Below the pieces are notes generated by a model that searched no databases, had not been told where the DNA came from, and worked only from the letters and a program-made list of their open reading frames with translations. A stretch of DNA of 64,000 nucleotides from Candidatus Woesearchaeota archaeon (GTDB lineage Archaea; Nanobdellota; Nanobdellia; Woesearchaeales; UBA9642): NCBI GenBank assembly GCA_003599145.1, contig QZIT01000005.1:512330-576329 (forward strand). Direction: 5' to 3'. Made by a program: the position numbers and the translations under genes. How positions within the stretch are numbered: position 1 is the stretch's first letter; every line of letters starts with the position of its first letter. Below, piece after piece: positions 30,703 through 36,457 of this stretch.

Positions 30703-33147
30703 ATGGATGATAATGCAAAGCATAGTGCGAAAAATCACGAGCAAAATAGCAGGATTATTCCCCAAGTTATTGAAGATGAGATGAAAAAGGCATATCTAGA
30801 TTATGCCATGTCTGTTATTGTGGGAAGGGCATTGCCTGATGTGAGAGACGGATTAAAACCAGTCCATAGAAGGATTCTTTACGGCATGAGCGATTTGGGA
30901 TTGCAAAGCTCTAAAACATTTAAAAAATGCGCAAGAATAGTAGGAGAAATCTTAGGAAAATATCATCCGCATGGTGATGTCGCTGTTTATGATTCCTTGG
31001 TCAGAATGGCGCAGGATTTTTCTCTGCGATATCCTCTAGTGCACGGTCAGGGAAATTTTGGTTCTATAGATGGAGACCCTCCTGCAGCAATGAGGTATAC
31101 CGAAGCAAAGTTAACCAAATTGAGTGAAGAAATTTTGGAAGACTTAGAAAAAGAAACAGTAGACTTTGTTCCTAATTTTGATGATTCCTTAAAAGAACCA
31201 ACAGTCTTACCATCGAAGATTCCTAATCTTTTGATTAACGGAAGCTCGGGCATTGCCGTAGGCATGGCAACCAATATACCACCCCATAACATGACAGAAG
31301 TCTGCAGTGCAGTTATTGCATTGATCCGCAATCCAGATATGTCACTATCAGAATTATTAACCTACGTTAAAGGCCCTGATTTTCCTACTGGGGCAGAAAT
31401 TGCAGGCAGAAGCGGCATCATAAAAGCGTATGGAACAGGACACGGCATTATCACGGTAAAAGCAAAGATGCACGTAGAGGATAAAAAAGGAAGAAAAGTC
31501 ATCATCGTTACAGAAATTCCCTATCAGCTCAATAAATCTTTATTAATAGAGCAAATTGCAGAGCTTGTAAAAGATAAAAAAATTCCGGACATCAGCGATT
31601 TAAGAGATGAAAGCGCGAAAAAAGGAGTACGCATTGTTATAGAATTAAAAAAAGACGCAAATGCAGAAGTAGTCCAGAATTTACTGTACACCCATTCAAA
31701 ACTGCAATCAAACTTTAGCATCATTTTTCTCGCCTTAGTCAACAACGAGCCGAAAGTGCTCCCTTTGAAAGATTGCTTGGTACATTTCCTGCATCACCGG
31801 CAATCTGTTGTAAGAAAAAGAACAGAATATGATTTGAAAAAGGCAAAAGAAAGAGCACATCTTCTCGAAGGGTTATTAATTGCCCTTCACCATATCGATC
31901 CTGTTATTGCATTGATTAAAAAATCTGCAAACGCCGACGAAGCAAAAACAGGATTGATAAAAGTATATGCGCTGACAGAAATTCAAAGCCAGGCAATTTT
32001 AGATATGAGACTGCAAAGGCTTGCTGTTTTAGAGCAGGAAAAAATCAAAACAGAGCATACAGATTTACTCGTCCAGATAAAAAGCTATCAGGAAATCTTG
32101 GCAGATGAACAGAAAATACTGGGCATTATCAAATCAGAATTAGAAGAAATACGGCAAAAATATGGAGACAACAGACTCACCAGCATCTCTGACAGCGAAG
32201 AACTCTTAGATATGGAAGATTTAATTGCTGATGAACCTGTTGTAGTTACCGTTACTCGCTCAGGATATATCAAAAGAATGCTCTTGGAAACCTATAAAGT
32301 GCAGAAGAGAGGTGGAAAGGGAGTAACAGGAGCTGAAACAAAAGAAGAAGACCAAGTTGAGCAGTTATTTGTAAGCAACAATCATGCGTATTTACTCGTG
32401 TTTACCAATACAGGACAGATGCATTGGCTGAAGGTTTATCAAATTCCAGAAGCAGGAAGATATGCCATGGGAAAAGCCATTGTGAATCTGTTAGCATTAA
32501 AAGATGAAAAAATAAAAACAATTATTCCTGTTAAAGAATTTGATGACAAACATTTTTTGGTGTTAGTAACCAAAAAAGGACTGATTAAGAAAACAAATTT
32601 GTCTTCCTATGCAAGACCAAGAAAAGGAGGCATTATTGGCATCGATATTCAGGAAAATGATGCGCTGGTTAATGCATTATTAACGGATGGCACTAAACAA
32701 ATTTTAATTGCCACTAAAAATGGACTCGCAGTGAAGTTTGAAGAATCTGATGTTAGAGCAGTGGGAAGAAATGCAAAAGGAGTTACAGGAGTAAGGTTAA
32801 AAGATCACGATGAAGTTATGGGAATGGTTATTGCAGATGACCAGAAAAAATTATTGACCATTACAGAGAACGGCTACGGAAAACGAACCATGATTTCAGA
32901 ATACCGCCTGATTAATAGAGGAGGAACTGGAGTTATTAACATTCAGTGCACCGAAAGAAACGGAAAAGTAGCTGCAATCAAAGAAGTCAATGATGTCGAT
33001 GAACTGATGTTTATCAGCAAAAAAGGCATTATTATCAGAACGCTTGCAAGCCACATTTCTGTTATTGGAAGAAACACGCAAGGAGTTAGGTTGATGAAGT
33101 TACAAGCAGACGATAAAGTTGTTGCTGCTGCAAAGATTGTCAACTAA
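30703..33147 (+). CDS. gyrA: DNA gyrase subunit A
   Basis: [29 protein letters not shown] (catalytic Tyr), GyrA-box QKRGGKG and beta-pinwheel repeats. Confidence 0.97.
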
Positions 33148-34358
33148 GCGCATAACTGAGAAACCCACTCACTGTATTTCGAATAGTACATTCTCACAAG
33201 CGCTTGCTTTTCTGCATCAGAAGTTATTTGCGATGGCTTTGGCCTATTTAATGCCCATCGGTGCAAATCCGCCCCCCAAATAAAGCCTGCGCCAAAAGCA
33301 ACTTTTGCAAGCAATCTTCCGGGATAAAGATGACCGCCCACATGTAACTCATCTTGAGCAACCATATAGGTTCCCAAAGAATTGTTGCCGTATTTCTTTA
33401 TTCCTTCTGCATAGACTTGTTCAGGGGCAAAAGGCGTTCTTTTTCTTACTGCGTCAACAATTCTCCAATTTGCCTGATGAGGGTCTATCATCATTTGCGA
33501 GTATTCAGGACTTGATTTGTCAATATGTTCTTGCTCTACAATCTTTTCAAAAGCTTCTGTCATCATTCTCACTGCTGGTTTAAAGACAACCTGTCCATCC
33601 ATGTGAAAATCAGGCCTCTTTACCTGTGCTTCATGCCCGCCATAAGTCAAGTTTCCATCGACGCTAGAAAACTGAGGTCCTACTCCTGATTTCCACCAAA
33701 GATTAGGTCCTAAAGAACCGTCTGCATTAAGGTAACATCCCAAGAATCCGTATTTTTTTTCTAAAACCGTTTGGTCAAGTGAAAATTGCAATACTGCAGC
33801 GCCAACACCATCAGACAAGAGAATGCATGTTGCCCTGTCTTTATAATTTAAAACATGTGATAAAGTATCTCCTGCAAGAACCAGCACTTTAAAGTTTAAA
33901 ACATCGTGAGGAATTTCCTCTTCAGGATTTCTCATTAGGTGTGCATAAAGTTTTCCTGCGAGCGCATTATAACCTGCGCTTTCTGCAATAATGCCTCCTG
34001 TACAACCTCCGTTTTGGTCGTGTGCAGGACATTCTGCTCCCAATAAATACTGGACAATGGTTGCGTTATCAGGAACTGCAAATGTGCCTGATTTATGATT
34101 TGCAAAAATAATCAACCCTATATCTTTGGCAGTGAGACCTGCACTCTTTAATGCCACATGGCCTGCTACAGCTCCTAAAACAGGCAGAGGTTCATACTGA
34201 GTGCTTATAGCTCGCTCGCTAATTCCTGTTCGTTCAATGATCCAATCATTACTGGTATCGACCATTTTTTCTAAATCAGGATTAGAAAGTCTATGGGGTG
34301 GAACCGCGCTTCCTGTGCCAGAAATAATAATTCTAGGTAGTTGTTGAGTGTACACCAT
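33144..34358 (-). CDS. fabH: 3-oxoacyl-ACP synthase III (FabH-like condensing enzyme)
   Basis: [21 protein letters not shown] (Cys), DRATCIL..DG, MDGQVVF, PHQAN (His), YGNNS (Asn) and FGAGFIWG. Confidence 0.85.
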
Positions 34359-34433
34359 AGCAAACCTCAAAAAGTTGGAAAGTATTCTGTTTATATAAAT
34401 ATAATGGAAGAATAAAGGAAGAAGAGTGAATAT

Positions 34434-34458
34434 CCCTAGCCCTTTTCAGGGCTAAGGG
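34434..34458 (-). terminator. GC-rich hairpin followed by a pyrimidine-rich tract on the minus strand
   Basis: CCCTAGCCC-TTTTCA-GGGCTAAGGG; minus-strand downstream TCTTCTTCCTTTATTCTT. Confidence 0.5.
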
Positions 34459-34592
34459 GTGGAATTAATGAGGTTCTTCTGGAATCACTTTTCCAGTGGT
34501 TGTTTCTTCGCCTCTTTTTCCGCGGGCTTTTCTTCTGATTCCAGAGTGTGAAAGTATGTTAGTATACATAATTATATACTAATTGGCATTTG
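34434..34592 (-). other. Candidate small structured transcript and/or 34-aa sORF (34465-34569)
   Basis: Upstream CGAAAAG-GTTTATATATAA (BRE/TATA), three inverted repeats and ORF MYTNILSHSGIRRKARGKRGEETTTGKVIPEEPH. Confidence 0.4.
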
Positions 34593-34654
34593 ACTAATAT
34601 CATAAGTTATATATAAACCTTTCGAAAATGAATTTTTTTCCATATAGAAATAAT

Positions 34655-35542
34655 TTATAAAATTGGATAGAATTTCCTTTTTTTTCCTCTTCCATGGCTT
34701 AAATTCCAGTATTTTCTAAATTCGCAGAGTGCATGTTCAATATTTCGGAGAGATAAAAAAGGCCTGTTTGAAAGCGCTTCTTTAAAGGAAATATGCGCCC
34801 AAGCATACTGGTGAGAAAGCGCAGGAAGGACCTCTTTTTGTTTTTTGTGGAGATAAGCAATCTTTTCCATTTGTTTCTTTCTCGAAAGTTTTTCCTGAAA
34901 AATAATTTCCAAGCCCCAGACAGCTCCGGGGCCTATGTTCACAAAATCATCATCGGTCCACTTTTGCTTGAAAAATGCAAAATAGGTAAGATCTGTCCAG
35001 ATTTCATACGCTAAAAAATTGCCCACCAGAGGAATCTTTTTTATGGCTTGCAGACTCTCATAAGGAATTCGTGCATGATCTAGTTCACAGATAATCCTAT
35101 CACCATGTGCACCAACAAAAAAAACGCTCTGCAATACAGAAAGATACTTTGGTTCGCCCTGTTTTCCTGCAATTAAATAGGCGTCATTGAAAAGCGTTTT
35201 GCCTTGCTTTTGCAAAGCGATCATTTTTTTCCGCAGTGCTTCTTCGAGAGCAGTATCAAAAACAGAGAATGGCTTTATGTTCAAGGCTTCATAAAGAAGA
35301 TGTTTATTAAAGAACCTATAAAAAACCACATTAAGCAATATTTTTTTTCTGTTTCGTATATGTCTGAGCGTATCAATAATATACGCTGTGCCTTTATCTA
35401 ACTCACGATAAACGTTGCAAAACTTGTACTTTTGCAATACATCATCTTTTGTCCAAGGAGGCTTTTCCTTTAAAAAAAATCGCCTATACCAAACAACCTG
35501 TCTTCGGTAAATAAATTCAAAAAAATCACGTTCTAAAGCCAT
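34655..35542 (-). CDS. 5-hmdU DNA kinase helical domain (aGPT-Pplase1) family protein
   Basis: PPWTKDDVLQKYKFCNVYRELDKGT, YRFFN, HhH-like IPLVGNFLAYEIWTDL, IGPGAVWGL and IEHALCEFRKY. Confidence 0.8.
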   Translation of the reverse strand: MALERDFFEFIYRRQVVWYRRFFLKEKPPWTKDDVLQKYKFCNVYRELDKGTAYIIDTLRHIRNRKKILLNVVFYRFFNKHLLYEALNIKPFSVFDTALEEALRKKMIALQKQGKTLFNDAYLIAGKQGEPKYLSVLQSVFFVGAHGDRIICELDHARIPYESLQAIKKIPLVGNFLAYEIWTDLTYFAFFKQKWTDDDFVNIGPGAVWGLEIIFQEKLSRKKQMEKIAYLHKKQKEVLPALSHQYAWAHISFKEALSNRPFLSLRNIEHALCEFRKYWNLSHGRGKKRKFYPIL

Positions 35543-35591
35543 GACAAGAGAAAGGCAATACTTTTATAAATAACCTTTGTTCAAAATCAGC

Positions 35592-36071
35592 ATGCACATC
35601 AACCCATATACCCTGAAAGAAAAAGGCTGGTCTGCAAAAGAAATAGATCACGCAGCGGGCATTGTCGAAAAACACAAAAAGAAATGGGATCAGGCAGCCT
35701 ATTGGGTTTTGCTCATAGTTACGATCGTAGGAAATTTCCTGCTTTCAACAGCACTGTTGCCCATGATGCTCCTTATGAATGACTTGAGTTTTCTAGCACT
35801 GATTGGTGTTCTTGGCATTATTCTGGGAGTTTTAATAACAGGCGTCATTAAAGGAATGGACCTGCATTTTCATCATCATACCGCAATCCTCTTCATTGTT
35901 CCGCTCATAGCGTTTATCAGTTTTTTTTTCATAACCGGCACTGCCAACTTGATAGCACTGCAAACCAATATTGCTTATTATCATAATCCAGGCATTGTTG
36001 GCCTGGTGTACATTGTAGCATACTTATTGCCCTACATCCAGTTTTTGATAACAAGACACCTGACAAAATGA
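35592..36071 (+). CDS. Hypothetical four-TM membrane protein
   Basis: LKEKGWS.KEI leader plus four hydrophobic segments; ATGA-like overlap with the next gene. Confidence 0.75.
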   Translation: MHINPYTLKEKGWSAKEIDHAAGIVEKHKKKWDQAAYWVLLIVTIVGNFLLSTALLPMMLLMNDLSFLALIGVLGIILGVLITGVIKGMDLHFHHHTAILFIVPLIAFISFFFITGTANLIALQTNIAYYHNPGIVGLVYIVAYLLPYIQFLITRHLTK

Positions 36072-36457
36072 ACCTTCTTGAATGGACGAAAATATTTGTA
36101 GAGCAGAAAGACTTACTGCACCGAAAGCTTTTGAGTTCCCAAGTAAAAGAACGAACTATTTCATTTGTTTTTAAAGATAGAACGCACGAATATTTCATCG
36201 AGGAAATTCTTGATGAGCAGATACTGAAAAAAATAGAACCGCATGAATATAAAACAATAGTATGCCTGTACAAAAAAGAAAACTTGAATTTCTTGATAAA
36301 ACACTGGAAAGCAATAGCTGCCATACTCAATCTCAGTTTTATTTTTGTTGATATCGCGCAGGATAGAAAATGGATTATTAATCCTCACACACACAATAGC
36401 ATAGCAGACAACGCATCTCTAGAACTAGGCTTAAAGACGATGTTTGAGAATGCCTAA
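36068..36457 (+). CDS. Hypothetical protein
   Basis: Coupled ORF; WIINPHTHNSI..SLELGL motif. Confidence 0.72.
   Translation: MNLLEWTKIFVEQKDLLHRKLLSSQVKERTISFVFKDRTHEYFIEEILDEQILKKIEPHEYKTIVCLYKKENLNFLIKHWKAIAAILNLSFIFVDIAQDRKWIINPHTHNSIADNASLELGLKTMFENA

Follow-up and report, generated by a model that had tools for sequence, protein, structure and literature searches.

The window, a stretch of 64,000 nucleotides from a Candidatus Woesearchaeota archaeon (positions 512330-576329 of contig C1 in an assembly of 1.31 Mb that is 97.5% complete), harbors at 34655..35542 on the reverse strand a stand-alone gene of PF18723 (aGPT-Pplase clade 1), whose 295-aa product is, judged by its sequence, the cellular counterpart of the phage proteins M6 gp55 and PaMx11 gp50 and not a kinase. 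It is proposed, with a probability of about 0.35, that this protein is a cysteine-dependent housekeeping enzyme acting on abnormal thymine in DNA, which most likely returns 5-hydroxymethyluracil (hmU) to thymine. The reading frame is open throughout, and Pfam and the structure model give an all-helical fold of the HhH superfamily without a P-loop domain. PF18723 (HMUDK_hel, formerly aGPT-Pplase1) is the sole Pfam family found at E<=0.01, and its match runs over residues 5-285 and profile positions 5-278 of 281 (E 5.2e-52; score 177 bits, cut-off 25). The placement in the aGPT-Pplase/HMUDK helical family given in a preliminary description of this DNA is thus borne out at full length, as is the full motif set claimed there, since the conserved family residues R14, R46, D49, F176, D184, C273, E274 and K277 are all present.

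The same description held that the family activates hmU by phosphorylation, which is wrong. The assayed hmU DNA kinases are P-loop proteins of about 187 aa, M6 gp54 and PaMx11 gp49, and further P-loop kinases are ViI gp67 and gp243, PhiW-14 gp37 and the N-terminal part of SP10 gp186, the SP10 kinase domain being active without the C-terminal part of gp186 and M6 gp55 being dispensable in the reconstitution (PMC8989533). In the phage records, Pfam assigns gp54 to PF18748, gp51 and gp46 to PF18724, and gp55, gp50 and the C-terminal part of gp186 to PF18723. It is the last group, encoded next to the kinases or fused with one, that the window protein matches, with about 24-31% identity at the best places in a search of 354 phage records. 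Together with ViI gp160, these phage clade 1 proteins match the window protein over its full length at 24-29% identity and have in common with it the motifs N-x-x-R-x-x-D, G-x-F, GPG and E-x-x-x-C-E-x-x-K; they differ from it in setting, as the window copy is cellular, chromosomal and alone in a genome where no hydroxymethylase, kinase or transferase was found. In phages the PF18748 kinases (M6 gp54, PaMx11 gp49, ViI gp67) are encoded beside clade 1 or fused with it; they have a P-loop fold unrelated to it, and they are the source of the misleading Pfam name. Since the assayed kinases are separate PF18748 proteins and the window protein has neither a P-loop nor a PF18748 match, its homologues being the genes that adjoin the assayed kinases, a kinase function is rejected, which corrects a "5-hmdU DNA kinase" annotation that has spread to databases and to one defence-system paper. 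Bacterial and fungal homologues were already noted in 2018 in a paper whose Table 3 labels gp51 and gp55 opposite to Pfam (PMC5889632).

The gene lies among genes which Pfam identifies as gyrA, KAS III, TrmB, Hjc, RNase Z-like and tRNA intron endonuclease. Hjc, TrmB and the tRNA intron endonuclease are archaeal and, with the names given to homologues, fit a Woesearchaeota-like DPANN cell. A PHROGs search over the 73 ORFs of the window revealed no head, terminase, portal or integrase family, and its one "minor tail protein" match covers a 112-residue part of an 843-aa ORF located 23 kb off, in keeping with the earlier statement that no prophage is present. GC content (0.364), GC3 (0.334) and codon score (33rd percentile) are ordinary for the genome, the means over its 609 long ORFs being 0.382+-0.024 and 0.351+-0.054, so that there is no sign of a recent foreign insert. 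A prophage or recent insertion is rejected on the PHROGs result, the ordinary composition and the lack of a close viral homologue in IMG/VR; no conserved synteny that could place an insertion was found, the upstream side of the flanking gene differing among five relatives. The gene and one for a small membrane protein stand head to head and have in common a palindromic TATA-like box, TTTATAAA, at 35563..35570, 21-28 nt upstream of the start codon, which by the archaeal consensus we take to be a promoter. The PF18723 gene is probably transcribed alone. An Rfam search over 33900-36200 gave no match above chance, and neither NCBIfam nor PADLOC has a family for the gene.

The homologue search, outside the scope of which lay the longer forms of PF18723 proteins, yielded 245 proteins at E 0.001 among 753 candidates. 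The 120 matches listed are 281-342 aa long, 46-60% identical and composed of PF18723 only, and the organism names among them, where given, are Pacearchaeota, Woesearchaeota, Nanoarchaeota and Patescibacteria; a profile built from 113 of these homologues found 4353 representatives. Distribution near the window's organism is patchy, the gene occurring in 4 of 401 genomes of the order, in none of seven genomes of the same family and in 11 of 401 of the class. A FastTree phylogeny was constructed from 105 representatives, obtained by collapsing 146 loci at 80% identity after duplicate loci and matches below 220 aa had been dropped. The window protein falls in a clade of 39 rows (support 99), which in this tree is made up of cellular DPANN and Patescibacteria sequences and is free of viruses: none of the 40 IMG/VR loci lies within it, and the best viral identity is 38%. 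This cellular clade is under purifying selection, with dN/dS of 0.06-0.19 in 20 of 39 pairs, lone copies included, dS being saturated in the other 19. A decaying relic is disfavored by these ratios, which hold for the clade, and by the invariant residues described below; the window gene's closest relative among the matches listed is 60% identical, too far for a dN/dS of its own. Neither an activity of clade 1 nor a DPANN copy is reported in the literature found, and in PMC13697223 the clade 1 gene serves just as a marker of T-modified phages. Nor did the literature search bring up a DPANN/Patescibacteria clade that lacks the partners and is linked with thymidylate genes, although such a clade may be covered by two papers outside that search which are the likeliest to treat cellular copies, Iyer et al. 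2013 and Burroughs et al. 2015.

The enzymes with which clade 1 is associated in phages were sought throughout the assembly. No dUMP hydroxymethylase had been recognized in the window at first reading, which holds true, and in the assembly as a whole neither a TS-like hydroxymethylase nor an amino acid:DNA transferase was found that might have lain elsewhere. PF00303 (thymidylate synthase), which matched 10 of 14 controls, and PF02511 found nothing in it. The kinase model PF18748 also found nothing there, and it matched none of the 13 archaeal carriers as against three of four phage controls (M6, SP10 and ViI), the miss of PhiW-14 showing that divergent kinases can escape it. For the clade 2 transferase, PF18724, which matches in four phages, gave no hit, nor did a purpose-built profile of 70 transferases at E<=1, while the TET/JBP model PF12851 matched neither the assembly nor any control. 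A phmmer search with 18 phage pathway proteins retrieved at E<0.01 just the PF18723 gene itself and dCMP deaminases. As neither kinase, transferase, TS-like gene nor TET/JBP was found, hypermodification of the cell's own DNA, the first of two roles suggested in the preliminary description, would be left without its pathway.

UDG, trimeric and dimeric dUTPase, SHMT, ThyA and ThyX were likewise not found in the assembly, whereas a thymidine kinase and two dCMP deaminases are present. Among relatives of the same family, seven of seven have a TS-like gene, six of seven ThyX and six of seven UDG. In tblastn searches these TS-like, ThyX and UDG proteins gave no match in the window's genome, and the genes that flank them in the relatives were found mid-contig without them, so that loss is a better explanation than a gap in the assembly. 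A cell of this constitution could live by salvaging thymidine, and its DNA might contain uracil. Across the other carriers, of which 9 of 12 have UDG and 11 of 12 ThyX or a ThyA-like gene, a replacement of UDG or thymidylate synthase by clade 1 is not supported. A methylation of uracil in DNA that depends on methylene-folate was considered in view of the DHFR-like and dCMP-deaminase genes present, and was dropped since the genome search revealed no SHMT.

The surroundings of clade 1 genes link the cellular clade to thymidylate genes. In 7 of its 39 rows a ThyA or ThyX gene is found no more than 4 kb away, against 0.29 expected if a genome carries 1.5 ThyA/ThyX genes per Mb, while a kinase or transferase neighbor occurs in none. 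The seven rows all belong to a 26-row subclade which does not include the window's gene, and they are related, not independent, with differing arrangements and two unrelated synthases. Other archaeal branches (loci L036, L039, L042 and L038) have TS-like, ThyX or dCMP-deaminase neighbors, and most other clade members stand alone among housekeeping genes. The neighbor labels were checked by a Pfam scan of 142 of the 146 neighbors, four long ones being left out; the "dCTPda_like" labels of genes at L008 and L010 had no Pfam support and were omitted from the counts. Among 27 representatives in viral contigs, as far as the few queries used could reach, clade 1 lies near a TS-like gene in 20, a kinase in six and a transferase in one, and a pairing with TS is likewise described for pelagiphages (PMC9599517).

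The structure model of the 295-aa protein is a confident one (pLDDT 95.8, pTM 0.92). Among solved structures it matches best the amino acid:DNA transferase gp46, with Z 10.4 and an rmsd of 4.2 across 223 residues at 8-9% identity, the aligned parts spanning 5-291 and 8-264. The matches of Mag1, QNG1 and MjOgg lie within 1 Z of it. Foldseek places gp46 at ranks 1-3 with E values of 0.12-0.23, which are without significance, and a PDB sequence search gave no match at E<=10. In gp46 the flipped base is held by W146 and C247, and E243 and T244 bind a metal at O4 (PMC11472151); W146, E243, T244 and C247 are invariant in 70 of 70 transferases. The metal-dependent cysteine mechanism of clade 2 has been confirmed in a further paper, in the main text of which the term "Pplase1" does not appear (PMC13458397).

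Residues F176, E269 and C273 of the window protein are the apparent counterparts of W146, E243 and C247. The first lies in the HhH region of residues 167-185, with G174, F176, E180 and D184 (34988..35044, reverse strand), and the other two in the motif E269-H270-x-L-C273-E-F-R-K-Y (34709..34738, reverse strand), which appears to line up with E243-T244-x-L-C247 of gp46, where the metal ligand and the catalytic cysteine reside. Profile comparison by hhalign sets F176 on W146 (E 0.0066, a weak match with a probability of 5.7) and E269/H270/C273 on E243/T244/C247 (E 0.12, also weak); a shallower comparison had given a probability of 0.5. E269 and C273 are present in 113 of 113 close homologues, and among distant ones C273 is kept in 132 of 135 and F176 in all 135. 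Position 270, which corresponds to the metal ligand T244, is Gly in 81 of the 113. The window protein thus differs from gp46 in that T244 is not conserved and PF18724 does not match, and also in that gp46 needs a phospho-hmU made by the kinase, which the window's cell seems unable to supply.

On these grounds a mechanism can be drawn for the proposed return of hmU to thymine. The HhH motif would bind the DNA backbone, and the flipped base would come to lie between F176 and C273, just as gp46 takes it between W146 and C247. C273 would then add to C6 while a metal or water is held at O4 by E269, upon which the 5-substituent would leave to form an exocyclic methylene, which a cellular hydride donor would reduce to the methyl group. 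In phages, clade 1 would thereby perform the known conversion of hmU to T, and in cells the substrate would be oxidized or salvaged hmU. The Cys-C6 mechanism is published for the transferase, and gp51 yields thymidine when borohydride is supplied (PMC8989533, PMC11472151). In SP10, PhiW-14, M6 and ViI the virion DNA is described as free of hmU, part of which becomes thymine on the polymer and part the hypermodified base, and this conversion of leftover hmU to thymine, a question that goes back to about 1980 (PMC8989533), is assigned to no enzyme in the literature found. PF18723 is present in five of five hypermodifying phages and in neither of two phages that keep hmU (SPO1 and SP8), and it is from this distribution, the pairing with TS and the hmU-free virion DNA that an hmU-to-thymine enzyme is proposed. 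Among hypermodifying phages, clade 1 is the common gene without an assigned job; the lone, selected cellular copy implies that a clade 1 protein has a function of its own even where kinase and transferase are missing, and the window protein offers a small, well-folded and partner-free candidate enzyme.

Several findings weigh against the conversion of hmU to thymine. The register of the active site is drawn from weak profile matches and from the end ranges of the structural alignment. Neither a hydride donor nor a redox domain can be recognized, and no SHMT was found in the genome; gp46 acts on a phosphorylated substrate, for the making of which the searches revealed no kinase here; and most relatives live without the gene, as do all seven of the same family. 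Linkage to the kinase would account for the phage pattern just as well, and SPO1 and SP8 are close kin. Moreover, SP10 makes glutamyl-thymine and no PF18724 gene was found in it, so that clade 1 may be the transferase there. A bolder version, decidedly tentative, is that clade 1 is the missing polymer-level thymine synthase, acting through a cysteine-C6 adduct, and that DPANN and Patescibacteria domesticated it as a one-protein, direct-reversal repair of oxidized thymine. To our knowledge, no such repair route for oxidized thymine is known in cells. If this is true, dependence on hmU reversal would be expected in a genome like this one, seemingly devoid of thymidylate synthase, UDG and dUTPase, and a reduction of hmU would represent a new direct-reversal chemistry of DNA repair.

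A role against viruses, the second one suggested in the preliminary description, has no local support from PADLOC and seems unlikely, though possible: the protein would bind or covalently trap the hmU-type bases of invading virus DNA, or be the remnant effector of a nucleotide-conflict system resembling DS-4. The E. coli DS-4 unit, validated as a defence system and found by DefensePredictor, comprises TS-like, dNMP kinase, PF18723, NDT-like and Nmad2 proteins, and in the one row considered, that for lambda (-log EOP 0.93, smaller plaques), its protection is weak (PMC13092281). DS-4 resembles the window gene in having a cellular PF18723 protein outside a hypermodifying phage, and the patchy spread within the order and the class, together with a weak NDT-like gene 3.4 kb from the PF18723 gene, would suit such a role, as would plasmid homologues that adjoin TIR, TS-like, MazG-like and ABC-three-component genes. 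The DS-4 data, however, are those of a five-gene unit and not of a single gene, and the window gene has no operon with such partners; the plasmid proteins, at 22-30% identity, belong to other branches of the tree, whereas the window's clade lies among housekeeping genes. PADLOC gave no match for the gene and one weak regulator match among 10 proteins.

A thymidylate-pathway role on free nucleotides or uracil (hm-dUMP, dUMP or dU in DNA) in place of hmU in DNA is likewise rather improbable. It would account for the relatives' neighbors, which include ThyA, ThyX, DHFR, dTMP kinase and dCMP deaminase, and for a genome with two dCMP deaminases and thymidine kinase where ThyA, ThyX, UDG and dUTPase were not found. 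QNG1, of an HhH-like fold and tied with the other matches in the fold search, acts on a free nucleotide. Against it, the other carriers keep UDG (9/12) and a ThyA-like or ThyX gene (11/12), so that a replacement of these enzymes is not supported, and the HhH motif and basic C-terminal tail would point to a polymeric substrate.

Less probable again is an amine or amino-acid transferase like those of clade 2, which would hypermodify the cell's own DNA with a substrate supplied by unrecognized enzymes. The catalytic motif is as in gp46, by the weak profile alignment, and SP10, with clade 1 and no clade 2 gene, still makes glutamyl-thymine; yet in the 97.5%-complete assembly neither a source of hmU (PF00303, PF12851) was found nor a PF18748 kinase, a family seen in 0 of 13 archaeal carriers and in three of four phage controls, with PhiW-14 missed. 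It is very unlikely that the protein is an atypical DNA glycosylase of the HhH type which removes a damaged pyrimidine. Mag1, Mag2 and MjOgg match the model at Z 9.3-9.6 and no UDG-family gene was found in the genome, but ordinary HhH-GPD genes are already present there. The sequence searches likewise do not make the window protein an ordinary HhH glycosylase, as no PF00730 match and no PDB match at E<=10 were obtained, and in a by-eye alignment to the genome's own EndoIII-like protein, whose register is approximate, F176 and G204 occupy the positions of the lyase Lys and the catalytic Asp. That the window protein is itself a 5-hmdU DNA kinase is almost certainly untrue, the idea deriving from what Pfam calls the family and from labels like "nucleotide kinase domain-containing protein" in databases, while the P-loop domain is lacking and the assayed PF18748-type kinases are encoded separately.

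Some further loci of the family deserve mention. The most phage-module-like locus in the cellular clade is a metagenome locus (L121:2445-7487), where a 594-aa TS-like gene, an HD-like gene, the clade member, DHFR and ThyA occur together. One archaeal genome (G675) carries two copies of a separate PF18723 branch (L037 and L038), one of which overlaps topoisomerase VI genes and the other of which adjoins an NDT-like gene. In a sister branch (L149-L175), a lone gene is found in gut and other host-associated bacteria, often by genes that read from sequence as lytic transglycosylase-like.

Around the window gene itself, a near-palindromic 23-nt box lies directly past the stop codon (34632-34654); it is repeated at several intergenic sites of the genome, including C1:118659 and C1:489837, and is possibly the site of a regulator. 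The single-copy intergenic stretch between the PF18723 and KAS III genes (34420-34585, reverse strand) contains two strong hairpins (z -4.1) and a possible ORF of 35 codons and belongs to no Rfam family, and its last hairpin and tail may resemble the ends of IS200/IS605 elements. Beyond it, a bacterial-type KAS III (FabH-like) gene (33144-34370, reverse strand) is situated on this archaeal chromosome tail to tail with gyrA (30703-33147, forward strand).
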